Shown: positions 1,863 to 41,351 of the stretch, piece after piece
How positions within the stretch are numbered: the first letter of the stretch is position 1
Layout: each line of letters opens with the position of its first letter
Source: a virus
Lineage: Duplodnaviria; Heunggongvirae; Uroviricota; Caudoviricetes
Strand: one strand, 5' to 3'
DNA: 41,351 bases
IMG/VR virus record: IMGVR_UViG_2711768015_000005
The notes under the pieces: model-generated
Seen by the model: only the letters and a program-made list of their open reading frames with translations
Told to the model about the DNA's origin: nothing
Database searches by the model: none
Translations under genes and position numbers: made by a program

Positions 1863-3950
1863 ATGTTTGCTTCAGTTAAAGAACTGGTTGGATTACCGGG
1901 GATGCCGGGAACGGAGCAAGGCGTTCGCTATTCAATCAGGAAGTATGCAACCAGCGAAACCAGCAGACGCCGCAAGAAAGGCGCTAAAGGTTTTGAATAC
2001 AGCATTGACTGTTTACCTGAAGTGACACAGCAGGCATTACGCGAACGTTATGCCCTGCAACTGATGACGCAAAAAGCCGATGAATCACCGGCTCCGGTGG
2101 TGACAAAGGCCAGACGCTCGTCTGCCGTGGTTGATGCGGTGGAGGCATATCGCGGATCACCACAACTGATGGTCGAACGCCTCAATGCCCTGACTGAAAA
2201 CCAGCGCCAGGTGGCAGACGCACGCATTGCGATCGTCAGTGAGGTGCTGAAATTCACGCAACAACCCGGTTTCAGCTGCGCTAAAGCTATCCGGTTCCTC
2301 GTTAACAGCCTGGCACGATCACAACTGGACGAGCGCATTGTGGCAATGGTTGAGACGGCGAACGCCAAAAAGGGAAACAGCCGCGCGTTGAGTGAAATCA
2401 CGCTGAAACGCTGGATTGCGGCCTTTAACAAGGCACAGAACGCCGCTGAACGCCTGCTTTTACTGGCACCGGGTAAACGCCAGGAAATAAAAGCCGAAGA
2501 TATTAACTGGCTGCCCGAATTTCTGGCGCAGTATCGCCAGTCAAACGGCCGACCAATGACCGAGGCTTACGAGGATTTTGTTGCTGAATGGCAGCACCGG
2601 CACGCTGATGAGCCTTATATGCTCGATATCATGCCCTCTTATGACACCATTCGCCGCGCAATGAAGAAACTGCCGGAAGTGGTGAAACAAAAAGGCCGGG
2701 TAACTGGCAGTGAATACCGTCAGCTTGAGGGATTCACGCGCCGCGACTGGTCCAGAATGCCGGTGAATTATGTCTGGATTGGTGACGGTCACGGCATGAA
2801 GCTGAAATGCGCGCACCCGGTTCACGGGCGGCCATTCGCACCGGAAGTGACCTTTGTTATCGACGGTGGCACGCGCTTTGTGGTGGGCTGGAGCCTTGAC
2901 CTGGCTGAAAATGTTTTCGCCGTAGCCGGTGCCATACAGCACGGTATTCGCCATCATGGCAAACCGTTTCTGTATTACTCGGATAATGGCTCCGGGGAAA
3001 CCGCCGACGTCCTGGATAAGGAGATTGTGGGGATACTGCCACGACTGGGGATTAATCACCCGACAGGGATTGCCGGTAATCCGCAGGGACGGGGCATTAT
3101 CGAACGGCTTAACCGCACATTACCGATGCGCATAGCCCGTAAATACCGCACCTATTTCGGGAAAGGAGCAGATCGCGAGACGTTACGTAAAACCAACCGC
3201 GATTTACGCTCGGCATTCAGTGCCCTGCAACAGGGCAAACGGCTGAACGCCCGGCAGCAGTCAGCGATGCGTGATTTACCGTCCTGGTCTGAACTGATTG
3301 ATGCCATTCGTGACGGTGTTGAGTGGTACAACAACCGGCCGCACGATGAATTACCCATGAAGCCGAACGGTAAACATTACAGCCCGGCGGAGTTCAGAAA
3401 AAAACGCCTGGCGGAAGAGGACACGGAAATTGAATGGCTGTCCGATGTTGAACTGCGGGATATGTTCCGGCCGATGGTGGAGCGCCCTGTAAGACGCTGT
3501 GAAATACGCTGGCTGAATAATATTTACTACGCGCCCGAGCTGCGTGACGAGCATGGCCGTAAGGTACTTATCAGCTATGACATTCATGATGCCGAACGAA
3601 TTACCGTGCGCCGCCCGGATGGCAGCGTGATTTGCGAGGCGGTATGGGACGGCAATAAACGCGAAGCCTTCCCTGTCAGCGCGGAATACTACAAACAGCA
3701 GCAGCGCCTTAAAGGCATGCGTAAACGCGCAGAGGAAAAAATCCGTGATGCCGAGGATGAGGTTGTCAACGTGCTGGAGCACAAGCCGCAGGAGCCCTGG
3801 CTGGAAAACATATACCGCCCTGTGGGTAATACGGTGACCGTTCAGCAACCGGTCGCTGACGATGAACCTGATGAAGAATACGAGCGTAATTTCCAGCGGG
3901 GATTGCAACTGCTCGAAGCGAAATTAAAAGAAAGTGATCCGCTGGCCTGA
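1863..3950 (+). CDS. A: Mu-type DDE transposase A
   Basis: 695 aa immediately after ner; central rve-like core with acidic residues in VWIGDGHGMKL ... YYSDNGSGE; size and position as MuA. Confidence 0.9.
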   Translation: MFASVKELVGLPGMPGTEQGVRYSIRKYATSETSRRRKKGAKGFEYSIDCLPEVTQQALRERYALQLMTQKADESPAPVVTKARRSSAVVDAVEAYRGSPQLMVERLNALTENQRQVADARIAIVSEVLKFTQQPGFSCAKAIRFLVNSLARSQLDERIVAMVETANAKKGNSRALSEITLKRWIAAFNKAQNAAERLLLLAPGKRQEIKAEDINWLPEFLAQYRQSNGRPMTEAYEDFVAEWQHRHADEPYMLDIMPSYDTIRRAMKKLPEVVKQKGRVTGSEYRQLEGFTRRDWSRMPVNYVWIGDGHGMKLKCAHPVHGRPFAPEVTFVIDGGTRFVVGWSLDLAENVFAVAGAIQHGIRHHGKPFLYYSDNGSGETADVLDKEIVGILPRLGINHPTGIAGNPQGRGIIERLNRTLPMRIARKYRTYFGKGADRETLRKTNRDLRSAFSALQQGKRLNARQQSAMRDLPSWSELIDAIRDGVEWYNNRPHDELPMKPNGKHYSPAEFRKKRLAEEDTEIEWLSDVELRDMFRPMVERPVRRCEIRWLNNIYYAPELRDEHGRKVLISYDIHDAERITVRRPDGSVICEAVWDGNKREAFPVSAEYYKQQQRLKGMRKRAEEKIRDAEDEVVNVLEHKPQEPWLENIYRPVGNTVTVQQPVADDEPDEEYERNFQRGLQLLEAKLKESDPLA

Positions 3951-4023
3951 AATAAAAAAATAACCCGAGGGGTGACTCAGGTTATTTGAGGTTTCAGTCT
4001 CGGAGAATGCTGTCTCAAGCGAG

Positions 4024-4965
4024 GTGAATAATATGACCGATATTAACGATGTAATCAAGACCATTGATGAACTTATTGATGGCGGCGTACTGACGCAGTA
4101 TGCCATCGCCAGAGAGGCGGGAATTTCCGACGGCACATTATCGGCTTTCCGTAAGGGAAAATATAAAGGCGATAACGCTGCTGTGGCTGCTTCCCTGCGC
4201 TCCTGGTATGAGAACTGGAATAAACAAAGCGCACTGCCGGAACCGCCGCAGTTTGTGGAAACTCAGACAGTCCAGGAGCTGCGCGCACTGTTTCAGGCGG
4301 TTCGCCTGATGGGCTGTATTAACGTTATTGTGGGCGTACCGGGTGTGGGTAAAACGGCCACTGCCCGTAATTACTGCCAGGAGCAACCAAACACCTGGAT
4401 GATCACCCTGTCACCCGCGCACTCCAGCGTCACGGAGTGTCTGCTGGAGCTGGCCGATGCGCTGGGGATTGATTACACCCGCGCGAACAAAGGGGCATTA
4501 TCCCGCGCCATCCGCCGTCGCCTGATGGGAACGCGTGGACTGGTGATTGTGGATGAGGCGGATCATCTTGGTATTGACGGTCTGGAGCAACTCCGGGCAA
4601 TTCAGGACGCCACGGGGATCGGGATGGTGCTTATTGGTAACCCGCGCGGATTGTTTAAAGGTGGACGCCGCGCCTTTGATGATTTATCGCGCCTGTTCAG
4701 CCGTCTTGCCCGTACAAAACAACTTCGCAAGGCCAAAAAGGCGGATGTGCTGGCCATTGCCATGGCGTGGGGGATCAGTGGTGAGGCCGAGCTGGCCGTC
4801 ATGCAGGCTATCGCTGAAAAGCCGGGAGCGTTACGCGTTCTGACACATACGCTTAACCAGGCGTGGCTCACCGCCAGCGGTGAAGGCGCGGCGCTGACAG
4901 AAAAACATATTAATGCGGCCTTTAAAGAGGTTTATACCAACCCTGAATTACTCTCACAGGTGTGA
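4024..4965 (+). CDS. B: Mu B-like transposition ATPase / target DNA activator
   Basis: 313 aa; Walker A GVPGVGKT, Walker B LVIVDEADHL; near-colinear similarity to MuB (PEPPQFVETQTV, KPGALRVL). Confidence 0.9.
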   Translation: MNNMTDINDVIKTIDELIDGGVLTQYAIAREAGISDGTLSAFRKGKYKGDNAAVAASLRSWYENWNKQSALPEPPQFVETQTVQELRALFQAVRLMGCINVIVGVPGVGKTATARNYCQEQPNTWMITLSPAHSSVTECLLELADALGIDYTRANKGALSRAIRRRLMGTRGLVIVDEADHLGIDGLEQLRAIQDATGIGMVLIGNPRGLFKGGRRAFDDLSRLFSRLARTKQLRKAKKADVLAIAMAWGISGEAELAVMQAIAEKPGALRVLTHTLNQAWLTASGEGAALTEKHINAAFKEVYTNPELLSQV

Positions 4966-5189
4966 TTATGGCGGTATTTAATATTCCTGATATTTACGGA
5001 CGCTTTTACCTGGTTAATTTCGATAACGTGAAGGTGATTTCACTGGCCGAAAATAAAGAATGTGGCGATTTACTTTTTGAATTTAATGACCGCACACGAA
5101 TGGTGATATCTGCCGGACTTGATCGCGAAGGTGCGACAGAAGTTTACAGCGGAATATGCCGTTCTGTTGGTGCGAAACAAGTCAGCTAA
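4962..5189 (+). CDS. Small early protein in the Mu kil position
   Basis: 75 aa ORF with start overlapping B stop (GTGA); position matches kil; no recognisable motif. Confidence 0.4.
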   Translation: MIMAVFNIPDIYGRFYLVNFDNVKVISLAENKECGDLLFEFNDRTRMVISAGLDREGATEVYSGICRSVGAKQVS

Positions 5190-5456
5190 ATGAGGTGTTA
5201 TATGAATATGCAATCCTGCGGTAACAAAATGAATTTATTCGACTCCCTGAACAGCGCGCGCCGTCTGACCGAACTTGCCGGTGCGGTACTGGAACGCAGT
5301 AAGCGCTATCCGCAACGTTTTGCACTGAAAACCACGCCGCCGGTAGGCAACGTGCAGGGAACCGGTGAAATTGAAATCACCATACAGACCAACGGCCTGC
5401 GCCGCCGTGTGAAGGCCACCCGCATCAGCGGCTGCACGGTTTACTGGGAGGTGTGA
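5190..5456 (+). CDS. Hypothetical early protein
   Basis: 88 aa ORF translationally coupled (TAAATG) to the preceding ORF; start may be an internal ATG (5202 or 5229). Confidence 0.4.
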   Translation: MRCYMNMQSCGNKMNLFDSLNSARRLTELAGAVLERSKRYPQRFALKTTPPVGNVQGTGEIEITIQTNGLRRRVKATRISGCTVYWEV

Positions 5457-10224: not shown

Positions 10225-10647
10225 ATGGCTGAAACACAGATGAGCATGTTTGGTGACAGCGAACAGCTGCACGCGCTGATTGACCGTCTGGATGATATTC
10301 CTGATGATGAGCTGAAAAAGAACTGGCCCGGCACGCTGCGGGACCTGGTTGATGTGATCAGTGCTGAACTGCACCGTCAGGGGATTGAACCTGCTCAGGC
10401 GGGAATGCTTGCCCGTAAGGTTGCAGCCGCACAGGCCGGGTACATGGGCGGGCGTGGTTATTATCTCCCGGTCGGTGAATCCCTTTTCACCGAACTGCGC
10501 AATAATGAAATTTTTTCCCGCTGGAGCCAGGGCGAAAAAATTGAAACCCTGCGCCGCCACTACCAGATGTCAGAGACGCAGATTTACTCCGTTATCCGCA
10601 ACCAGCGTCGCCTGCATCAGGAACGCACGCAGCCACGGCTTTTCTGA
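10225..10647 (+). CDS. mor: Mor/C-family transcriptional activator
   Basis: 140 aa; C-terminal HTH region YYLPVGESLFTELRNNEIFSRWSQGEKIETLRRHYQMSETQIYSVIRNQRR resembles Mu Mor/C; it is the only family member in the window and sits directly before the lysis gene. Confidence 0.8.
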   Translation: MAETQMSMFGDSEQLHALIDRLDDIPDDELKKNWPGTLRDLVDVISAELHRQGIEPAQAGMLARKVAAAQAGYMGGRGYYLPVGESLFTELRNNEIFSRWSQGEKIETLRRHYQMSETQIYSVIRNQRRLHQERTQPRLF

Positions 10648-31743: not shown

Positions 31744-32294
31744 CCCTGACCCCGCATCAGCGCGCCCTGTTGCAGTTACTGCCTGACGGGCTGGCATGGG
31801 ACAAGCGTCCGTCATCCGTACTGGCATCATTATGTCTGGGCCTCAGTCATTCGACAGCGCGTGTATCCTGGACGGGTAAACAGCTGCTTGCCGAGCGTTT
31901 CCCTGACACGTCGCGCCTGCTGCTGGAAGACTGGGAGCGTTATCTCGGGCTTCCCGAGTGTGATATGGCCGGAGCCACCCTCACGGAGCGACAGCGTTAT
32001 GCCGGAAATAAATACCGGATGAAGCCCTCGCTGAACCGTGAATTTTATATCCGGTTTGCGGCGGAGTTTGGTTATCAGATTGACATTCAGCCCTCACCGG
32101 ATTCGCAGTGGGTCAGTATTGTCACGATTAACAGTGAAACCGGCTACCGGAATATGAATGTGCTGGATGATATTCTCACGCCGCTGCGTATTTATGAAGG
32201 CGGTGCGCTGGAATGTATTCTGAACCGTTATAAGCCTGCATGGCAGACGTTTATTTACGTTTATGCAAACAGCCATGAAGAGGAGACTATTTAA
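31734..32294 (+). CDS. Tail protein (Mu gp48-like, DUF2313-type)
   Basis: 186 aa directly upstream of the tail fibre gene. Confidence 0.65.
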
Positions 32295-33175
32295 TGTTTC
32301 ATGTTGATAATAATTCCGGCGTGGCGAATATGCCTGCGCTGGCACCGGCGCAGAGTAATACCACCACCTGGTTTACCGAAGGTGACGGACAAAAAGGTAT
32401 CAGCTGGATTGGTCAGGACTGGCTGAATATTCTCCAGGCCGAACTGCTGAATATTCTGGCTGAAGCCAGTATTCAGCCGGATAAGGCGCAGTTAAACCAG
32501 CTTACGCTGTCCATTAAAGCCATTATCGCTGCGAATGCCTTTTCCCGGAAAAATAACCTGAAAGAAATTGCTGATGCCGGTGCGGAGGCCCAGCGTCTGG
32601 CCCGTGGTTATCTTGGTCTGGGGACGCTTGCCACAAAAAACAGTCTTGGTCCCGCTGACGTTAATGCCCTGGCGAAGGATCAGAATCTCGCCGACCTGGA
32701 GAATAAGGGAACCGCCCGTAATAATCTGGATGTTTACAGCAAAAGCGAAGGTGATAACCGTTACCTGCGCAGGGAGCAGAACGGCGCAGACATTCCGGAT
32801 AAAGGGGCTTTTATCGATAACGTCGGTTTACGGGAAACGGTAAACAGGGCGGCGAATGCCCTGCCATCGGACGGCACCGCCGTTGCCGCGAACAGGCTGG
32901 CAAATGCCCACACAATTAATGGTGTTCCCTTTGACGGGACGCAGGATATCACTATCTCATCAGGAACAGTAACCGCCATAAGACTGGGGTCGGTGACCGC
33001 ACATATGCCCGGAACATGGGAAAGCTGGGATCTGAATCTGGGGGGCGGCAATGTTCTTACCGGAATTAAAGTACAGGATGTCGGTAAGAATACGGCAGAT
33101 AACGTCGGCGGCGTGTATTACCGGCCGTTGCAGTATCTGTTAAATGGAGCATGGGTGACGGCTGCAAGTATATAA
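32294..33175 (+). CDS. Tail fibre protein S: constant N-terminal part plus currently joined variable C-terminus
   Basis: 293 aa; crosses the left gix-like site at 32810-32835; residues after GLRETVNR... differ from the inverted cassette. Confidence 0.8.
32810..32835 (+). promoter_or_regulatory. Left gix/hix-like invertase crossover site inside the tail fibre gene
   Basis: TTATCGATAACG-TC-GGTTTACGGGAA; resembles Gin/Hin recombination sites (AAAACC..GGTTT half-sites around a central dinucleotide). Confidence 0.65.
32825..32892 (+). repeat. Left inverted repeat of the invertible tail-fibre segment (68 bp)
   Basis: Reverse complement of 34073-34139 with one mismatch. Confidence 0.85.
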
Positions 33176-33184
33176 TGATATTCA

Positions 33185-33208
33185 GAAGGCCTTCCGGCCT
33201 TCTTTATT
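33185..33208. terminator. Hairpin terminator between convergent S and tail-fibre assembly genes
   Basis: GAAGGCC-ttcc-GGCCTTC followed by TTTATT. Confidence 0.6.
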
Positions 33209-33728
33209 ACTGTGGCTGCTCAGGCCATTTAATGGCGTTAAATTCAGCTTCTGTTTTAATGGCGGGTAGTTCCATTTTCTTCACCTGACTGATGTATGCC
33301 ATCCATTGGGTAAGTGCTGCTCTGTCTTCATCGCTGATGGTGCCCAGTTGTAGCTCCGTTCTCCAGTCATTAATTTTTTCATATGCCTGATTAAGATATG
33401 ACTGGCGCATTGCTTCCAGTTTTCTTGCGTAGTTAACCGGAATACGGGAGATTATGCCATTATCAAACTTCCAGTTTCCTGAAATATCCGTGCCTTCAGG
33501 GAGTTCATCGACCTCAACCACAGAAAACCCCGCAGGATACAGCGCCGAGGCGTCCTGTGATATTGAGCAGATAACGCCGCTGTCAGGTGTTATGCAAAGT
33601 TTATATTTTTTGGTGAATAATGGCAGGGATTCGTAGAAATCCTTACCATCTTCACTCTGGAAATACTGAACATTATTACCATATGGCATATTTTCAGGAT
33701 AATAACGGGTTATATTTTTTAGTTCCAT
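33207..33728 (-). CDS. Tail fibre assembly protein (Tfa/U-like) in the inverted cassette
   Basis: 173 aa minus-strand ORF directly downstream (on the minus strand) of the alternative fibre C-terminus. Confidence 0.75.
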   Translation of the reverse strand: MELKNITRYYPENMPYGNNVQYFQSEDGKDFYESLPLFTKKYKLCITPDSGVICSISQDASALYPAGFSVVEVDELPEGTDISGNWKFDNGIISRIPVNYARKLEAMRQSYLNQAYEKINDWRTELQLGTISDEDRAALTQWMAYISQVKKMELPAIKTEAEFNAIKWPEQPQ

Positions 33729-33779
33729 AAAATCCTCCTGGAAATAAATCTGTTTTAAAATATATTATTTACTGACTAT

Positions 33780-34145
33780 TTATAACTGAGATACCGTAAT
33801 CCATGTACCTCCGACTAATTTTTGCAGGGGTCTGAATGCTATAAAATCGTTTGAAGCATCAACTTTACTGTCAATCTGCAGGCCTGCCATAACATTACCG
33901 TACGCAGAGTAATATGCCCCACCGTACATTACCTGCCTGTTCTCTGCTCCCAGCCTGATATCCTGGATATATCGGGAATCCGCATCCTGCTGTGTTATAC
34001 CAGAAGTGATGTTTATGTCCTGCGTCCCGTCAAAGGGAACCCCATTAATATTTCTTGGGGTGGCGAGTCTATTCGCGGCAACGGCGGTGCCGTCCGATGG
34101 CAGAGCATTCGCCGCCCTGTTTACCGTTTCCCGTAAACCGAGGTT
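33780..34145 (-). other. Alternative tail-fibre variable C-terminal cassette, inverted and without its own start codon
   Basis: Minus-strand frame open from 34145 encodes [49 protein letters not shown]...GGTWITVSQL*; first ~22 aa identical to S at the repeat, then divergent. Confidence 0.75.
34073..34139 (-). repeat. Right inverted repeat of the invertible segment
   Basis: Reverse complement matches 32825-32892. Confidence 0.85.
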
Positions 34146-34153
34146 TTCAGGAA
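34128..34153 (-). promoter_or_regulatory. Right gix/hix-like crossover site
   Basis: Minus strand reads TTCCTGAAAACC-TC-GGTTTACGGGAA. Confidence 0.65.
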
Positions 34154-34218
34154 AGCCAGGATTAACTCTGTTTTATTCCTCATGCGACAATTCCGGCTTT
34201 TTATAATAAGGAAATCGT

Positions 34219-34847
34219 ATGCTGATTGGGTATATCAGGGTGTCAACAAATGACCAGAATACGGCGCTACAAAGAAATGNNNNNNNNNNNNNNNNNNNNN
34301 NNNNNNNNNNNNNNNNNNNNNNNNNNNNNNNNNNNNNNNNNNNNNNNNNNNNNNNNNGCTGTTTTTCGAAGACAGAATAAGCGGTAAGACAAGGGAGCGT
34401 CCCGGACTTAAACGCGCATTAAAGCGACTCCGGCCAGGGGATACCCTGCTGGTCTGGAAACTGGATCGCCTTGGACGCAGTATGCAGCACCTTGTCCTTT
34501 TAACAGAAGAACTCCGGCAACGCGGCGTTAACTTCCGCAGCATTACGGACAATATTGATACATCCACTCCCATGGGACGTTTCTTTTTCCATATAATGGG
34601 CGCGCTGGCGGAAATGGAGCGGGAACTCATTATTGAACGTACACGCGCGGGTCTTGCTGCTGCCCGTGCTCAGGGGCGTCATGGCGGCAGACCTCAGAAA
34701 CTGACAGAGAAAGAGCGGGAGCAAATCGCCCGTTTGCTGGCTAATGGCGAGTCCCGTAAACAAATCGCACTGATATTTGATATTGGCCTTTCCACCCTTT
34801 ATCGTTATTTTCCTGCCTCACCAGCTCCGTCACCAAAAGTACCGTGA
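34219..34847 (+). CDS. gin: Gin/Hin/Pin/Cin-family serine DNA invertase, interrupted by an assembly gap (Ns at 34280-34357)
   Basis: MLIGYIRVSTNDQNTALQRN...[gap]...LFFEDRISGKTRERPGLKRALKRLRPGDTLLVWKLDRLGRSMQHL...GRFFFHIMGALAEMERELIIERT closely parallels Mu Gin; the N-run changes the reading frame, so its length is not the real gap. Confidence 0.9.
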
Positions 34848-34932
34848 CGCTTTTTTGAATTTCCGCAAAACACATATTTTTCAGCGGTCGCTATTCTGAC
34901 TCTGTTTAATTCAGAAACAGGCAGAAAAGACG

Positions 34933-36987
34933 ATGTCAGACTCCAAGTGGAAAATGCTCTCCGCCATGCCCGGAGAGTTTTCAGTCAAGGTTGCCGGTGG
35001 CACGGTGGCATTTATTGAAAGCCCTTTCCGCCCTTCGGGTAATAAAGGGGGGATCACCTTCGCAGACTGCGTGATCCGCTTCAGCACGAAAGAGCCATTA
35101 TGGGTAATGCCGGTATCCGGTAATCCCAGTGCAGAAATCACCAGTTCAGGCGTGACTGGCATCATTCCAATCACATCTGACGTGGCCGGAACGCTCACGC
35201 CCTCCGACTGGAATGCACCGGATAACGCCGGGCCTTCCGGTAGCACGAATGGCAGCAGTTCAGAGCCGGAATATTACTTTGTTGTCATTCTCGCGGGTCA
35301 GTCAAATGGCATGGCCTACGGCGAGGGGCTGCCGTTACCGGATTCGTTTGACCGCCCGGACCCACGCATTAAGCAACTGGCACGCCGCAGTACGGTAACG
35401 CCCAACGGTACGTCGTGTACATACAACGACATCATTCCGGCAGACCACTGCCTGCATGATGTTCAGGATATGAGCGGGATAAACCACCCGAAAGCTGATC
35501 TGGCAAAAGGCCAGTACGGGACTGTCGGTCAGGGGTTGCATATTGCCAAAAAACTGCTTCCCTATATCCCACAGAATGCCGGGATACTTCTGGTGCCCTG
35601 TTGTCGTGGCGGGTCAGCATTCACCACTGGAGCCGACGGCTCATTCAGTGAGGCCAGCGGTGCTTCCGCTGATTCTTCACGCTGGGGGGCCGGTAAACCT
35701 CTGTATCAGGACCTGGTAAGCCGCACCAAAGTCGCGCTGGCGAAAAACCCGAAAAACAAACTTCTGGCTGTGGTCTGGATGCAGGGAGAGGCAGACCTTG
35801 CCTCAGGAAGCCAGCAGCATAATAGTTTATTCACGGCCATGGTTCAGCAGTTCAGAACTGACCTGGCTCCGCTTGCTGCGCAGTGCGTGAGTGGAAATGC
35901 CACCACGGTGCCGTGGATTTGCGGTGATACCACGTATTACTGGAAAAACGCTGGCACCGATAAATATGAGGCAGTATACGGTGGCTACAAAGGCAAGGAA
36001 GCACAGAAAATTTTCTTTGTACCGTTCCTGACGGATGAGAATGGACAGAGCACGCCAACGAATGCTCCGGCGGAAGACCCGGATATTGTGGCTGTCGGGT
36101 ATTACGGTGCAGCATCCCGAACCCAGGGCAGTTTTGTTTCGACACAGCGTGACAGCCATTTCAGCTCATGGGCACGCAGGGGCGTCATTTCAGACCGTCT
36201 GGCCTCAGCTATTATGCTCCATGCAGGGCGCACGGCTGAACTGATGCGTGGGCAGACCGTGACACCACCGGATGAGAAGCCGTCACCTGATACACCATCA
36301 AAACCGTCCACGCCACCCGCAGACACCACGACGATGAGTACGCTATTTGCTTACCGGGCATCTGAGTCTGAAGGACGGTTGACACCACAGGGTTGGGCTG
36401 CCGGAGGTGGCAAGGCTCAAATCGTGGATGATGCCGGAGCCAGCGGGGGTAAGGCAATGAAACTGACCAAGGAAACAGGAAGAGCCCCCTGGTACCTTGA
36501 GCATGATGCTGGTAATGGTGCGGACCTGCTGGGTAAAGGTGGTCTTGTCAGTTGTCGTTTTAAACTCGATGGCGCGCTTACGGCTAATCAGTACGCACTG
36601 GCGCTGTACTGGCCGGTTTCTGCCCTGCCGCAAGGGGTTACTCTGGAAGGAAATGCCGGTCATAACCTGCTGGCATCGTTCTACGTACAGAGCGATGCCA
36701 CAGACCTTAACGTGATGTATCACAAAGGAAACACGGCGCAGAACACGAAGCTGGGGTCATTCGGCGCATTTAATAACGAATGGCATACGCTGGGCTTCCG
36801 TTTTGCCGGTAACAACAGTATTGAGGTGACGCCGGTCATTGATGGTAAGGACGGGACACCATTCATGCTGTCGCAGTCTCCGGTCGGCACGTTTACGGCA
36901 GACAAGTTGCGCGTGACCGATATCACTAAAAATGCGACTTACCCGGTACTGATTGACAGTATCGTGGTGGAAGTGAATAACGCGTAA
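34933..36987 (+). CDS. Cargo protein: SGNH/sialate-O-acetylesterase-like domain, Pro/Thr-rich linker, lectin-like C-terminal domain
   Basis: 684 aa; esterase-type GQSN motif in VVILAGQSNGMAYGEG; linker PPDEKPSPDTPSKPSTPPADTTT; ~210-aa C-terminal domain; no signal peptide; located where Mu carries only com-mom. Confidence 0.55.
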   Translation: MSDSKWKMLSAMPGEFSVKVAGGTVAFIESPFRPSGNKGGITFADCVIRFSTKEPLWVMPVSGNPSAEITSSGVTGIIPITSDVAGTLTPSDWNAPDNAGPSGSTNGSSSEPEYYFVVILAGQSNGMAYGEGLPLPDSFDRPDPRIKQLARRSTVTPNGTSCTYNDIIPADHCLHDVQDMSGINHPKADLAKGQYGTVGQGLHIAKKLLPYIPQNAGILLVPCCRGGSAFTTGADGSFSEASGASADSSRWGAGKPLYQDLVSRTKVALAKNPKNKLLAVVWMQGEADLASGSQQHNSLFTAMVQQFRTDLAPLAAQCVSGNATTVPWICGDTTYYWKNAGTDKYEAVYGGYKGKEAQKIFFVPFLTDENGQSTPTNAPAEDPDIVAVGYYGAASRTQGSFVSTQRDSHFSSWARRGVISDRLASAIMLHAGRTAELMRGQTVTPPDEKPSPDTPSKPSTPPADTTTMSTLFAYRASESEGRLTPQGWAAGGGKAQIVDDAGASGGKAMKLTKETGRAPWYLEHDAGNGADLLGKGGLVSCRFKLDGALTANQYALALYWPVSALPQGVTLEGNAGHNLLASFYVQSDATDLNVMYHKGNTAQNTKLGSFGAFNNEWHTLGFRFAGNNSIEVTPVIDGKDGTPFMLSQSPVGTFTADKLRVTDITKNATYPVLIDSIVVEVNNA

Positions 36988-37002
36988 GCAGGATAAAAAA
37001 AT

Positions 37003-37035
37003 GCCGCCGGTAAGGGAAAACAAGAAACCGGCGGC
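37003..37035. terminator. Terminator-like hairpin after the esterase gene
   Basis: GCCGCCGGT-(15 nt)-ACCGGCGGC flanked by A-runs on the + strand, so T-runs on the minus strand. Confidence 0.45.
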
Positions 37036-37131
37036 AAAAAGATCGTTATATCCAAAGCAAAAAATGCAGTGCACCTTTTTACCTAACAGATATTACCGGT
37101 GTCAACACCATGTCAATAATTGGGAGGGATA

Positions 37132-37314
37132 ATGACATTTTTACAGCTTATTTTATTGTATTTCTGCACGGCAGTATGTGCGTTATATCTGGTGAGTGGT
37201 GGTTATAAGGCCATCAGAAATTATGTTCGCCGCAAAATTGAGGACGCAGCAGCTGAAAAACTCAGTAAAACAGCGCAGGTAACTCCGCTCCCAAAAGACC
37301 CGACCCAGCCCTGA
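37132..37314 (+). CDS. Small single-pass membrane protein
   Basis: 60 aa from ATG 37132 with GGGAGGG SD; TM helix FLQLILLYFCTAVCALYLVSGG then basic tail. Confidence 0.45.
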   Translation: MTFLQLILLYFCTAVCALYLVSGGYKAIRNYVRRKIEDAAAEKLSKTAQVTPLPKDPTQP

Positions 37315-37349
37315 TTGCAGGGCTTTATTCCCGCATAAGGAGGATATAC

Positions 37350-37604
37350 ATGCCAGAAATTAAAGGCACCGTCACTGAAGACCTGGTAAAACAGGCACTG
37401 TATTCCGGTGAAGTAAATAAGTTGCTGAAAGCGCAGGTCCGCAAGGATTTTGAGGCACAAATCGACACTTACGTTGATGAAGTGCTGGCAAAACTTATTG
37501 GGCCAGCAGTTGCGGCCAGTGATGCTGATAATGAGCCGAAAACCGACGCGCAGCCAGAGCAACCAGACCCGGCTCAGCCCGGAACTGACAGTACCATGAT
37601 GTAA
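37350..37604 (+). CDS. Small acidic protein
   Basis: 84 aa with strong SD AAGGAGG 8 nt upstream; acidic Pro/Gln-rich C-terminus. Confidence 0.5.
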   Translation: MPEIKGTVTEDLVKQALYSGEVNKLLKAQVRKDFEAQIDTYVDEVLAKLIGPAVAASDADNEPKTDAQPEQPDPAQPGTDSTMM

Positions 37605-37771
37605 CAATACAAACCGGTGGTGTCCTCTGCCGGTTTGACACTAATGAAAACATCTTTGCCGCTATCCAGCCATATGTAATCGCTGGATAGTATTTCGTAT
37701 TCAGAAATATAGCTGCTTATGGAGCAGTCAATCCTGCTTCCCCATCCGGGCAGGCAAATGAACCGGTATCA

Positions 37772-38065
37772 TTAGTCCGATTCACGCTTTTGTAGAATCG
37801 TTCCCAGAATGCTATACAGCTCATTAGCCTGTTGCTCCATCATTGAGACGGAGGCTATACGGTGCAAAGTGATTTCAGGAGGTGGCACACCTCCATCTTC
37901 TTGCTGTGGAGGAAAAACATAAGATTTAATAAAAAAGTTGAAGCATATGAACTCTCCCGCACTCGAACTGTATTTGCAGGCATCTGAATAATCGGAAAAA
38001 TAATCATTATAGATTTCCGCATTTTCAATCATTTTTCGATTTCTCGTCGTTACATGATTGTCCAT
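37772..38065 (-). CDS. Hypothetical protein, divergent from com-mom, in an AT-rich segment
   Basis: 97 aa minus-strand ORF with AAGAGG SD 6 nt upstream of ATG. Confidence 0.45.
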   Translation of the reverse strand: MDNHVTTRNRKMIENAEIYNDYFSDYSDACKYSSSAGEFICFNFFIKSYVFPPQQEDGGVPPPEITLHRIASVSMMEQQANELYSILGTILQKRESD

Positions 38066-38249
38066 AGCAGCCTCTTACGCTGGCAATTAACCAATTGACT
38101 TCTATAAATTAGTTGATTTGTTTGCTTTGCGGTATTCAAATGTACAATCATTCAGCACTTATGCGTTACAGCACCGTTTAAAATTAGTGATCAAACTCAT
38201 AAATTTTCGCTAATGACATTTCGTGTTATTTGTTGTATCAATTAAATAA

Positions 38250-38280
38250 ATCAAATCGATCGTTTTTGTCGATCGATTGA
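38250..38280. promoter_or_regulatory. GATC-containing palindrome upstream of com-mom
   Basis: AATCGATCG-TTTTTGT-CGATCGATT, a perfect inverted repeat carrying two GATC sites (38258-38261, 38271-38274). Confidence 0.5.
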
Positions 38281-38321
38281 GTGATAAAGATATCAACAAC
38301 AAAGCAGGAGGTTATGCGGCC

Positions 38322-38522
38322 ATGTATCGAAACATACGGTGCCGACATTGTAACAAGCTACTGGCACGAGCCAGCTTCAGTTATCTGGAAGTTAAATGTC
38401 CGCGCTGTAAAACCCTCAATCAAATCACATCTCAGAGCGCCACAGAGCACCCCACATACACAAGGAAATCCTGTCGTGGGGAACAGAAAGCAAGTTACAT
38501 CCCGTATCATCAGCACGCCTGA
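38322..38522 (+). CDS. com: Com-like zinc-finger translational activator of mom
   Basis: 66 aa [35 protein letters not shown]... parallels Mu Com (IRCKNCNKLL...IEIRCPRCK); AGGAGG SD upstream. Confidence 0.8.
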
Positions 38523-39213
38523 ACTTATTCACTATAACGACAATATCGTCGGTTATGGCTCCCGTGAGTTACGGGTTGAGACAATAAGTTGCTGGCTGGC
38601 CCGGCTGGTCGTCGTCAATAAACATTACAGCCATCGTTTCGTAAATAATTCCTACCTTCATCTGGGCATATTTTCAGAACGGGAGCTGGTTGGCGTAATG
38701 CAATGGGGTTATGCCCTTAATCCAAACAATGGTGCACGCGTCGTAACTGGCACGCAGAACCGCGAATATATGGAGCTTAACCGGTTATGGCTGCATGACT
38801 GTATGCCGAGAAACTCCGAATCAAGGGCAATCAGTTACGCGCTCAAACTAATCAGACAACTTTATCCGCAGGTGCAGTGGGTTCAGTCGTTTGCAGATGA
38901 GCGTTGTGGCTGTCTTGGTGTCGTGTACCAGGCAAGCAATTTTGATTATGTAGGCAGTCATGAAACAACATTCTATGAACTTGATGGCGAGTGGTATCAC
39001 GAGATTTGCAAGAATGCAATCAAACGAGGAGGACAGCGAGGTGAACATCTGCGGGCTAATATCGACAGAGCCAGTGTTCATAAATTCCGTCAGTTTCGTT
39101 ACATCCGGTTTCTGGACAAGAGAGCCAGAAAACGCCTTAACACAAAGCTATTCAAAGTCCAGCCTTACCCAAAACCACAAACAGTTAAAACTGGTTTGAA
39201 AGAGAGTGAATGA
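38476..39213 (+). CDS. mom: Mom-like DNA modification enzyme; start uncertain
   Basis: Overlaps the 3' end of com in another frame as in Mu; the frame is open from 38281 and GTG 38476 is a plausible start giving ~245 aa; last gene before the right prophage end. Confidence 0.65.
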
Positions 39214-39249
39214 ACGCTTAAAAACTCATTCTAAAACTCAAAAGAAAAG

Positions 39250-39345
39250 CGCCGATTTAGTATCAAATAAGTTGCGTATCGGCGTTTTTCAGCGGTATCA
39301 AATGAAATGCAAATCGGTATCAAAAAAATCGCCGCGCTATAGACA
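39250..39345. promoter_or_regulatory. Right prophage end (attR-like) with three inverted copies of the end repeat
   Basis: TAGTATCAAAT (39259-39269), CGGTATCAAAT (39293-39303), TCGGTATCAAA (39323-39333), inverse of the left-end sites. Confidence 0.6.
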
Positions 39346-39371
39346 GCCTAAGCGGCTGCTGACCTCCCTGA

Positions 39372-39890
39372 CCATGCTGTAAATCTCTTTATCCTGGTTG
39401 TCACAGAATAAGCCCGGTAAAATACGGGCTTATGAACGACATCTCTTCTGACGACATCTTCCTGCTGAAACAGCGCCTTGCCGAACGTCAGTTGAAAACG
39501 AAACCGCTGCTGAAATCCCTGGAAAGCTGGCTGCGTGAAAAGATGAAAACCCTGTCGCGACACTCAGAACTGGCGAAAGCGTTCGCATACGCCCTGAACC
39601 AGTGGCCGGCGCTGACGTACTATGCAGATGATGGCTGGGCTGAGGCGGACAATAACATCGCTGAAAATGCGTTGCGGATGGTCAGTCTGGGCCGCAAAAA
39701 CTACCTGTTCTTCGGTTCGGATCATGGAGGAGAGCGGGGAGCGCTGCTGTACAGCCTGATCGGGACGTGCAAACTGAACGGAGTGGAGCCAGAAAGCTAC
39801 CTCCGCTATGTCCTTGACGTCATAGCCGACTGGCCGATAAACCGGGTCGGCGAACTGCTCCCCTGGCGCGTAGCACTGCCGACTGAATAA
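39372..39890 (+). pseudogene. tnpC: 3' fragment of IS66-family transposase tnpC (C-terminal ~150-170 aa only)
   Basis: ...WPALTYYADDGWAEADNNIAENALRMVSLGRKNYLFFGSDHGGERGALLYSLIGTCKLNGVEPESYLRYVLDVIADWPINRVGELLPWR matches the conserved IS66 TnpC C-terminus; in-frame stop at 39369-39371 and no N-terminal region. Confidence 0.85.
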
Positions 39891-39930
39891 CACATTCCCG
39901 TCAATACGGTTCTTGCTGCACGCTTACGGT
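39891..39930. mobile_element. Right terminal region of the IS66-family element
   Basis: ACGGTTCTTGCTGCACGCTTAC, the reverse complement of a GTAAGCG-type IS66 terminus, directly after the tnpC stop. Confidence 0.55.
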
Positions 39931-39943
39931 AAACACCCCGGAA

Positions 39944-41116
39944 GTGGTGATGCACACTGTTGCTGATGTGATGACAGGAAACGATGGTGAATACTGTTTC
40001 CATGCGCGGACTGGAAAATATGGTGTGTATCTGAAACCGGGCTGGCACAACGAGTACAACGTTGGCGACATTGCTGTATACGACGACTCAAAGCCCGGCA
40101 CGCTGAATGACTTTCTGATTGCTCCTGATGAGGGCGACCTGAAACCGGATGTCGTCAAACGCTTTGAGGAAATGGTGGCGCAGGCGCAGCAGAGCGCCGG
40201 GGCCGCAGCCGGAAACGCACAGCAGACGGCGCAGGATGTGGCGGCAGCCGCAGGTTATGCCCGCGCAGCAGAGCAGGCCAAAAATGACATTGATGCTGCG
40301 CTGACCGGCACTCTGAAAACGGCTAACCATCTGTCTGAAATCGCAGCAGCAGGCGAAAAGGCACAACAGAAGTCCCGGGATAATCTGGGGCTGAAAAGTG
40401 CGGCCACGATGGAAGCACAGAGCGACATTTACGACCGGACAAAAGGCCGTCTGGCGATACCCGGCGCATTCGGCTTTGGGTGTGCTTTTCTGCCTGAAGA
40501 TGTTATCCGTTTTGACACTAAGAGTGATTTCCTGGCCTGGGTAAGGAATGCGCTGCCAGGTGAATATTCCGTTGCTGGCCCCTACGACATCATCATACCC
40601 GACACACGGTTTGAAGGGGTGCTCAGCATCCGGTGGACTGATGCACGCCCTGAGACAACAGAACCGAGGTACAGAGCCAAATCCCTTACTTTTTACGGCA
40701 TTAACGGCCCCATTTATCACACCCGCTACTGCTACTGGCCCATATCCAGACTGACTGGCTGGGTGAAAATAAATATAACCACAGAAGATATTATTTACAG
40801 AATCGTGGCGAGCTCTGTCTGCAACAGATGGGGAGACCCTGACATTGGCGGGCTGATTATTGCTGCGTACCAGGGAGAAGCTGACGGTGATAAAGTCATC
40901 AGACTTGTCAGGGGGCAGTCATACAGAGGCTCACGACTGGGACCGGTGGGGATTTCAGTGCCCAGTACTCCCACCGGAACGTATATAGCATCCCCACAAT
41001 TTTTCATTACGGGATGTTCAGAGCATTCATTACCGGGGTCATATAGCGCCCTGTCCGGGGTGCCGGATGCTCATGTCTCTGGCGCAATGCCCGGGCTTTT
41101 TATTCGCACATCGTGA
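39944..41116 (+). CDS. Tail-fibre protein C-terminal region from a different prophage, 5' part cut off by the IS66 end
   Basis: 390-aa ORF with Ala/Gln-rich coiled segment then Gly-rich C-terminal domain, followed by a tail-fibre-assembly-like gene; the frame is open back to the IS66 boundary with no credible start. Confidence 0.5.
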   Translation: MVMHTVADVMTGNDGEYCFHARTGKYGVYLKPGWHNEYNVGDIAVYDDSKPGTLNDFLIAPDEGDLKPDVVKRFEEMVAQAQQSAGAAAGNAQQTAQDVAAAAGYARAAEQAKNDIDAALTGTLKTANHLSEIAAAGEKAQQKSRDNLGLKSAATMEAQSDIYDRTKGRLAIPGAFGFGCAFLPEDVIRFDTKSDFLAWVRNALPGEYSVAGPYDIIIPDTRFEGVLSIRWTDARPETTEPRYRAKSLTFYGINGPIYHTRYCYWPISRLTGWVKINITTEDIIYRIVASSVCNRWGDPDIGGLIIAAYQGEADGDKVIRLVRGQSYRGSRLGPVGISVPSTPTGTYIASPQFFITGCSEHSLPGSYSALSGVPDAHVSGAMPGLFIRTS

Positions 41117-41126
41117 GGAATGCACC

Positions 41127-41351
41127 GTGGAAATTAAAAAAATCATTAATCCCCGTTATACCGAAAGTGGCGCAGTAGACTGTGACGTTTTTTTTGACGA
41201 CAGGGACCAGGCAGTCCCCTACACAGCCACCGCTGATGATGTCGCACCGACGGGTCAGCGAATCTGGCAGGAACTGCAAAGTGGCAAATGGGGTGAGATA
41301 GCCCCATTCACTGTGACACCAGAAATGCTGGAAGCGGCCAGAGAGGCCAGA
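41127..41351 (+). CDS. Putative tail fibre assembly protein, 5' part, running off the window end
   Basis: GTG 41127: VEIKKIINPRYTESGAVDCDVFFDDRDQAVPYTATADDVAPTGQRIWQELQSGKWGEIAPFTVTPEMLEAAR; no stop before window end. Confidence 0.45.
   Translation, partial: MEIKKIINPRYTESGAVDCDVFFDDRDQAVPYTATADDVAPTGQRIWQELQSGKWGEIAPFTVTPEMLEAAREAR

Follow-up and report, generated by a model that had tools for sequence, protein, structure and literature searches.

A NanS-p-type sialate O-acetylesterase in a probable late operon of Escherichia coli Mu-like prophages

The 41,351-nucleotide (nt) stretch of DNA analysed here (IMG/VR record IMGVR_UViG_2711768015_000005, hereafter the window) carries a Mu-like prophage of Escherichia coli, in which a block of several genes separates the invertase gene gin from com and mom. 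This block probably consists of a three-gene late operon, made of nanS-p and the genes for a DUF1378 and a DUF826 protein, followed by a small variable slot with an orphan gene. NanS-p enzymes de-O-acetylate Neu5,9Ac2 and mucin glycans, and lysogens thereby use O-acetylated sialic acids (PMC8065619). They have been discussed almost wholly as accessories of Shiga toxin (Stx) phages and other lambdoid phages; here the gene appears as part of a fixed late operon of a Mu-like lineage, to which the O157:H7 Sp18-type prophages belong and which about 4% of complete E. coli genomes carry. The enzyme family, the lectin domain and the two small neighbours are known, and what appears undescribed is the variant of the N-terminal domain together with the genomic and regulatory setting: in the searchable literature, we found no paper on NanS-p in a Mu-like phage or on NanS-p lacking DUF1737.

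In the mechanism that we propose, induction would allow a C-type activator (10225-10647) to turn on a promoter located just past gin, at the position of Pmom in Mu, alongside the lysis and head genes. This promoter would drive the synthesis of an SGNH/SASA esterase able to remove O-acetyl groups from sialic acids (Neu5,9Ac2, mucin O-glycans), with a lectin-like domain targeting the enzyme. Since no signal peptide can be read in its sequence, the esterase would leave the cell only at phage lysis. A β domain of 98 amino acids (aa), found in place of the capsid-docking DUF1737, could act as a lineage-specific docking or oligomerisation module, the tethering of the esterase to the virion being its likeliest task, and the rest of the protein would form an esterase-lectin cassette recombining freely with alleles of lambdoid prophages. 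The membrane protein DUF1378 and the acidic DUF826, which travel with the esterase in both phage types, would probably act together with it. In this scheme we infer the late timing, the substrate of this particular allele, the virion attachment via the N-terminal domain and the roles of the small proteins.

The NanS-p esterase and its two companions

By its sequence, the 684-aa product of nanS-p (34933-36987, + strand) is a member of the NanS-p sialate O-acetylesterase family. It matches Pfam SASA at residues 117-312 (E 1.5e-13) and DUF6645 at residues 533-650 (E 7e-68), and matches PHROG 143 end to end, starting at residue 71. The SASA/SGNH sialate O-acetylesterase catalytic domain (35269-36222) resembles the chromosomal E. 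coli 9-O-acetyl-N-acetylneuraminate esterase NanS (YjhS), whose structure (PDB 3PT5) aligns to residues 110-428 (E 1.8e-117). The signature blocks of the two proteins are identical and intact, namely GQSN (122-125), GGSAF (226-230), QGE (284-286) and DSH (407-409), whereas NanS is a single-domain chain of 337 aa, devoid of the N-terminal and lectin domains and not phage-borne. The tail of the catalytic region and then a Pro/Thr/Ser-rich linker 2 (about residues 440-465), both read from the sequence (36223-36336), lead to a lectin-like jelly-roll carbohydrate-binding domain, DUF6645 (36337-36987). The NanS-p C-terminal domain from phage phi24B (PDB 6YP6) aligns to residues 469-683 of this region (E 7e-98, 69% identity). 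Four aromatic residues have been proposed as the sugar site of the phi24B domain (PMC10462455), and all four are kept: Y510, Y515, Y540 and F611 of phi24B correspond to Y554, Y559, Y584 and F654. The 79-93% identity of the catalytic domain to lambdoid alleles suggests that this allele would also act on the O-acetylated sialic acids of Neu5,9Ac2 and mucin type.

The first-pass annotation, made from the letters alone, had read this protein as an SASA/SGNH esterase with a GQSN motif, a Pro/Thr linker and a lectin-like C-terminal domain. Profile searches (Pfam SASA, DUF6645) and solved structures (3PT5, 6YP6) support both the esterase and the lectin-like folds. The suggestion of an uncharacterised accessory module did not hold, since the protein falls in a studied family, with DUF1378 and DUF826 as its usual partners.

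The first of these partners is a 60-aa single-pass membrane protein (37132-37314, +; Pfam DUF1378, E 1e-31), with one N-terminal hydrophobic helix and a pI of 9.3. Its gene has a strong Shine-Dalgarno (SD) sequence, GGGAGGG, and an alternative TTG start at 37120. The second is an 84-aa acidic protein of pI 4.2 (37350-37604, +; Pfam DUF826, E 6e-16; PHROG 311), with an equally strong SD (AAGGAGG). These properties agree with the single transmembrane segment and the acidic character noticed at first sight. In lambdoid prophages, DUF1378 and DUF826 follow nanS-p in the same order, just ahead of the holin gene (also PMC10462455). Among 34 IMG/VR and 10 other loci, the succession esterase, DUF1378, DUF826 and com is observed in nearly every locus that is long enough, and loci without gin still hold the block. 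Two loci depart from this order: L011, where only a diverged DUF1378 was detected downstream, and L016 (IMGVR_UViG_2617270962_000005), which is rearranged. In the latter, the Mu-type esterase gene is followed by a lambdoid-like DUF1378 (57% identity), and the other strand carries DUF826, the orphan open reading frame (ORF) of 97 aa, com and mom at a distance of about 5-7 kb; a recombination or inversion between the nanS-p copies of a Mu-like and a lambdoid prophage seems to underlie this order.

In a collection of 50,697 phage records, DUF1378 is found in 309 and the esterase in 347, with the same taxon profile. Both small genes are under purifying selection, with ratios of non-synonymous to synonymous substitution rates (dN/dS) of 0.30 for DUF1378 and 0.16 for DUF826. 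Given the co-occurrence of DUF1378 with the esterase, the joint travel of the two genes to a genome whose lysis genes are about 24 kb off, and this purifying selection, DUF1378 and DUF826 appear tied to the esterase, and it is probably this enzyme, not the lysis genes, that they work with. They might, as our best guess, help to handle or release it. Although a lysis cassette adjoins them in lambdoid phages, the result argues for a functional link of the two proteins to the esterase instead.

The prophage that carries these genes looks complete, with repressor, transposase A/B, C-like activator, lysis, terminase, portal, head and tail genes, G segment, gin, com and mom. Comparison with other genomes places its right end at about 39341, past which the host DNA diverges. 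In the Mu record AF083977, the end of gin is at 35673 and the start of com at 35768, with the late promoter Pmom annotated at 35693-35759 inside the resulting gap of 95 nt. The earlier remark that the Mu invertase is followed almost directly by com-mom was therefore correct, and the four ORFs placed in the block were all recovered with the same coordinates and strands in the six-frame ORF list. Its description as an AT-rich cargo island applies to the slot (39.4% GC in 37634-38212) and to the spacer and DUF1378 region (about 44% GC), but not to the whole block, as nanS-p has 54.9% GC against 53.8% for the prophage. The GC drop noticed around 37600-38300 was measured as 0.34-0.44 over about 37800-38400.

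The view of the block as a sporadic or variable insertion had to be abandoned. Among 5426 complete E. coli genomes, a lower-stringency search detected the gin-esterase junction in 225, and the com-mom right end was found in 226. These near-equal totals, compared as counts and not genome by genome, suggest that practically all members of this lineage have the block. A search with the whole 3.47 kb found 27 genomes with a coverage of at least 80%; in the three that were examined, the block resides inside a Mu-like prophage, with a different chromosomal insertion site in each. The cultured Mu-like phages of the 50,697-record collection do not have it. A diverged copy of the arrangement is carried by the O157:H7 Sp18-type Mu-like prophage and by a Mu-like phage inserted in Stx phages (LC727881). 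When related prophages were compared, only the slot of about 0.6 kb with the 97-aa ORF proved variable, whereas the esterase, DUF1378 and DUF826 trio was conserved. The slot, and not the esterase, is thus the variable cargo.

The backbones of the window and O157-type prophages are nearly the same, with identities of 98% for the major head protein, 96% for the portal, 95% for Com and 97% for Mom. The values fall to 74% for Gin, 62%, 69% and 72% for the N-terminal, SASA and lectin domains, 74% for DUF1378 and 72% for DUF826. This combination of high backbone and low block identity points to a mosaic in which the block exists as two old alleles and the backbone is otherwise close. All parts of the block are under purifying selection.

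A candidate late promoter at the Pmom position

A putative C/Mor-type activator box of 20 nt, TTTTTGAATTTCCGCAAAAC (34852-34871, +), is located 81 nt upstream of nanS-p and also upstream of lys (10641) and of the head protease gene I (18828). The three upstream regions all share TTTnTGAnnTnCCGCAAAnC, followed 20-21 nt further on by a TAnnCT hexamer, and none has a -35 hexamer. At the esterase gene, the -10-like hexamer is TATTCT (34892-34897, +), 20 nt past the box; it is TACGCT for lys and TATGCT for I, both 21 nt past the box, and TATGAT at the esterase position of the O157-type phage. With a 17-base pattern derived from the lys and I sites alone, the esterase site was the sole other match on both strands of the 41-kb window with up to three mismatches (0.16 expected). 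The window has exactly three copies of the 10-base core TGAnnTnnCGCAAA, and so does the diverged O157 prophage (0.15-0.18 expected); in either phage, one copy each precedes the lysozyme, the protease and the esterase gene, on the same strand as the gene. Furthermore, the box and the -10 element are conserved as islands within the gin-esterase spacer, which is otherwise diverged between the two types. In Mu, the annotated C-dependent promoters Plys, PI and Pmom occupy the same three positions, and in the window the C homologue (10225-10647) is situated directly ahead of lys. These motif data indicate that the esterase operon is probably placed behind a promoter corresponding to Pmom and expressed late.

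As in Mu, a predicted activator-dependent promoter directly follows gin, and com, mom and a GATC cluster upstream of com are present. In Mu, however, 9 nt separate the promoter from com, while in the window the distance is filled by 3.4 kb of other genes and no box is seen ahead of com. The window box, with its core TGAnnTnnCGCAAA, also differs from the Mu C site TTAT-N6-ATAA, which fits a divergence of the activator. The Mu dyad itself has a sole match in the window, TTATTCCCGCATAA at 37325-37338, between DUF1378 and DUF826; with 0.4 expected and a position unsuited to a promoter, it probably arose by chance.

Late expression would agree with the behaviour of lambdoid phages, where nanS-p is among the genes with the strongest upregulation after induction (PMC8065619). 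The setting differs: in the NanS-p-bearing phages of the enterohaemorrhagic E. coli (EHEC)/Stx group (such as 933W z1466 and phi24B vb_24B_21/gp84), the gene stands between Q/stx and the holin gene under pR', whereas in the window it stands between gin and com-mom behind the C-type activator box, about 24 kb from the lysis genes. The host phage is also of another kind, lambdoid there and a transposable Mu-like myophage here. Shared by both are DUF1378/DUF826 downstream and an apparent late-gene status.

Two observations speak against the promoter assignment. The gin-esterase interval shows no terminator, so that read-through from gin is possible, and no box is found at the position of the fourth Mu late promoter (PP) or upstream of com. 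If the block were expressed in the resting prophage, for instance by such read-through, it could constitute a module for lysogenic conversion, defence or superinfection exclusion. The missing terminator would suit this idea, as would DUF1378, a small membrane protein like many exclusion proteins, and the divergent 97-aa ORF, which has its own SD and whose AT-rich, variable surroundings are of the kind usual for accessory 'moron' genes. Nevertheless, the trio carries the late-promoter box, its lambdoid counterpart responds strongly to induction, and, as long as the lysogen stays intact, an esterase that lacks an export signal would be confined to the cytoplasm, out of reach of sialoglycans. Neither the four proteins nor five alternative slot ORFs had a significant match in the PADLOC and NCBIfam scans, the only marginal PADLOC match being that of DUF826 to PbeC (E 0.0076, 12.9 bits), and a defence or exclusion module was rejected for the trio. 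We regard this explanation as very improbable. Among the roles first offered for the esterase, defence and superinfection exclusion thus lose ground, whereas a virion-associated enzyme and a benefit to the lysogen match published roles of NanS-p (PMC8065619; bioRxiv 10.64898/2026.04.10.717836).

The 5' untranslated region of the esterase gene contains an inverted repeat, CTGTTT-AATTCAG-AAACAG (34902-34920, +), which is kept in the O157-type spacer despite differing flanks. It precedes a weak ribosome-binding region and recalls, by analogy, the Com-controlled hairpin of the mom mRNA.

The N-terminal domain and exchange of the esterase-lectin cassette

In phage phi24B, gp84 is a capsid-decorating virion protein, whose N-terminal DUF1737 forms hexamers on the central hexons (bioRxiv 10.64898/2026.04.10.717836, April 2026). 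The window protein has an unrelated, near-orphan domain in its place (residues 1-98, 34933-35226, +). Pfam gave no DUF1737 (PF08410) match in these residues and BLASTP against the lambdoid N-terminus was empty; the domain is predicted to be all-β, whereas DUF1737 is composed of one helix and three strands according to the same preprint. It is joined to the catalytic domain by a Gly/Ser/Asn-rich linker 1 (residues 99-112, 35227-35268, +), modelled with a predicted local distance difference test score (pLDDT) below 50. Given this conserved domain, the statement of the first-pass annotation that the esterase has no tail-fibre N-terminal anchor was too strong.

A search with the full protein revealed two groups. 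The far commoner one comprises proteins of 640-655 aa with PF08410, and the other consists of 22 clusters (678-691 aa) that lack PF08410 and carry the new domain. In 20 of these 22 clusters the N-terminal domain is 97-100% identical to that of the window, and in the remaining two, which start 15 residues later, 87-88% identical. In the same clusters, identities extend over 81-100% for both the SASA and the C-terminal domains. Lambdoid alleles are about as close to the window in these parts, with 79-93% for SASA, 81-95% for the lectin domain and up to 100% for the Pro/Thr linker 2, a region that is 100% identical in many of them. DNA homology to lambdoid nanS-p begins at 35266, that is, at residue 112. 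The invariance of the N-terminal domain, together with the lambdoid-like identities of the esterase and lectin parts, indicates that the cassette is exchanged by recombination among prophage types, the N-terminal domain remaining linked to the Mu-like backbone.

Relatives of this domain are scarce. An exhaustive HMMER search of 1.84 billion representatives returned fragments of the same protein, one relative of 30% identity and one marginal match of 150 aa (E 7e-4), which we judged spurious. In the 30%-identity relative, the N-terminal domain is followed by a Pro-rich linker and SASA, and the gene is downstream of the invertase gene in a very different Mu-like prophage. The domain was seen only fused to SASA and never alone in this search. 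A word-indexed search gave fragments only, and the species-representative genomes of GTDB gave none; the 34 IMG/VR loci with the domain are all of the two E. coli allele types. Between these two types, pN is 0.25 and pS is saturated at 0.77, which corresponds to strong purifying selection.

By its position and behaviour in the sequence comparisons, the N-terminal domain looks like a lineage-specific adaptor. That it tethers the enzyme to the Mu-like virion is a tentative proposal, based on the analogy with phi24B and on the conservation pattern. Capsid-displayed decoration proteins such as phi24B gp84 and, according to the phi24B preprint, T4 Hoc could offer a parallel, being late-made, carbohydrate-active surface modules with a flexible linker after a small N-terminal domain; here, virion association is only a proposal, and neither sequence nor structural similarity of the window domain to any known virion-binding or decoration domain was found. 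About equally likely is that the enzyme is released free at lysis, as a public good for sister lysogens feeding on O-acetylated sialic acids, and that the N-terminal domain serves oligomerisation, stability or substrate targeting or is a remnant of an older gene; this is quite possible, although we would not bet on it. Both the growth benefit on Neu5,9Ac2 and mucin that has been published for lambdoid NanS-p (PMC8065619) and the lack of a signal peptide are in line with a free enzyme. So are the fold search with the N-terminal domain, which yielded nothing virion-like, and the fact that the domain never stands alone, unlike DUF1737, which also occurs as a stand-alone decoration protein according to the preprint (bioRxiv 10.64898/2026.04.10.717836). 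On the other side, the domain is near-invariant while the rest recombines, it is under strong purifying selection, the equivalent position in phi24B gp84 is held by a capsid-docking domain, and the gene apparently belongs to the late regulon with the lysis and head genes.

Several further points temper the tethering proposal and the mechanism around it. The searchable literature gave no experiment on any Mu-type allele, and the window prophage contains no paralogue of the N-terminal domain. No head partner co-varies with it: the major head protein is 98% identical across the two Mu-like lineages, the N-terminal domains 62%, which also supports a free enzyme. As a test, the co-variation of N-terminal-domain type with head and tail proteins was set aside as uninformative, the backbone being mosaic and the head protein so uniform. 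Finally, DUF1737-type NanS-p is also encoded by a P2-like myophage, so that the domain type does not simply track the virion type. In this phage (PV468777, L048, a P88-like member of the P2 family), the gene occupies 3791-5254, after the lysis genes, and the esterase cassette is thereby present in at least three temperate phage types of E. coli.

An esterase tethered to the virion could also serve infection, by de-O-acetylating bacterial surface polysaccharide (O-antigen, K1 polysialic acid) and opening the receptor of the tail fibre. The gene adjoins the tail-fibre/G-segment module and has diverged between the two lineages about as much as this module, the lectin domain could bind bacterial glycans, and the possibility has been raised for NanS-p in a review (PMC8065619). 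This role seems unlikely to us: the catalytic and lectin parts are interchangeable with alleles of lambdoid phages that use other receptors, the solved and tested relatives act on sialic acids (PMC8065619), and neither the Pfam and PHROG scans nor the search for paralogues in the window detected tail-fibre or baseplate-attachment homology in the esterase.

In the proposal that joins virion docking to the small partners, the N-terminal domain would be a new virion-docking module on a contractile-tailed transposable phage, DUF1378 and DUF826 would specifically assist the assembly, processing or release of the enzyme, and NanS-p would be a plug-in cassette with phage-specific anchors. Though we consider this full combination rather doubtful, it would make mucus targeting a general trait of temperate E. 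coli phages instead of a peculiarity of Stx phages. The prophage thus offers a natural domain swap: if the new domain docks on the virion, the anchor-plus-cassette design would be general; otherwise the enzyme would be mainly a public good released by lysis. Besides, EHEC studies that count the nanS-p alleles of each strain should take the Mu-like copy into account.

The variable slot and neighbouring features

The AT-rich slot (37634-38212, 39.4% GC) is situated between DUF826 and the com regulatory region. Homology to the FORC_069 and O157-type prophages stops at about 37633-37636 and resumes at 38213. In the window, the slot holds the orphan ORF of 97 aa (37772-38065, - strand), preceded by an AAGAGG SD and called by RefSeq as 86 aa from 38032. 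This ORF has no Pfam, PHROG, NCBIfam or PADLOC match, and its AlphaFold2 model (pLDDT 53) is unusable. Its homologues are confined to E. coli and Shigella, and are located in this slot at each locus examined. With a dN/dS of 0.37 relative to an allele of 79% identity, it is probably a real gene. Other prophages have different small orphan ORFs in the slot, none with a Pfam or PADLOC match.

The com regulatory region with its GATC cluster, com (38322-38522), mom (38476-39213) and the prophage right end follow at 38213-39341 (+; Pfam Zn_ribbon_Com, Mom), and the DNA from 38213 to the prophage end is 94.6% identical to the O157 prophage. The GATC cluster, which is the Dam/OxyR-type region of Mu Pmom, is kept upstream of com (38240-38325), its last GATC being about 40 nt from the com ATG. 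Neither the Mu C site nor the late box of the window phage is found in this upstream region. In some Mu-like prophages (L003 5051-6302, LC727881; L034, L039, H109), com is followed by a gene for a C-5 cytosine DNA methyltransferase of 350 aa instead of mom (Pfam DNA_methylase, E 2e-42 for L003). It appears that a different DNA-modification gene has been swapped in behind the Com regulator.

The spacer between nanS-p and DUF1378 contains a GC-rich hairpin of 9-10 bp (37003-37035), with A7 before it on the + strand and U7 after it on the - strand. A small RNA of about 90 nt may be encoded on the - strand of this spacer (36990-37116), with TTGACA (37116-37111), a gap of 15 nt, TAATAT (37095-37090), the hairpin (37035-37003) and U7. 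The minus-strand fold has a minimum free energy of -30.9 kcal/mol (z = -4.3), and the diverged locus L003 has a hairpin at the same position with a different stem. An Esr41-like small RNA was rejected as a candidate: its Rfam score of 22 bits falls short of the threshold of 102, and no match was obtained with homologous spacers from other loci.

Upstream of the block, gin contains 78 masked N at 34280-34357, and identical prophages show an intact recombinase of 190 aa. The G-segment region (32294-34210) encodes a fibre protein of 293 aa on the + strand; on the - strand, it has a partial alternative fibre end and a tail-fibre assembly gene (33207-33728), the only chaperone gene for the two fibre ends. 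It has inverted repeats at 32806-32949 and 34015-34157 with about 87% identity. The tail-fibre assembly gene is seen in either orientation among related loci, which indicates that inversion is active.

Past the prophage right end (39342-41351), a fragment of an IS66-family transposase (39432-39890) and a lambdoid tail-fibre gene (39944-41116) are present, which places the Mu-like phage within or next to another prophage, a degraded one. Strain AST46 carries the same phage in a P2-like capsid gene.

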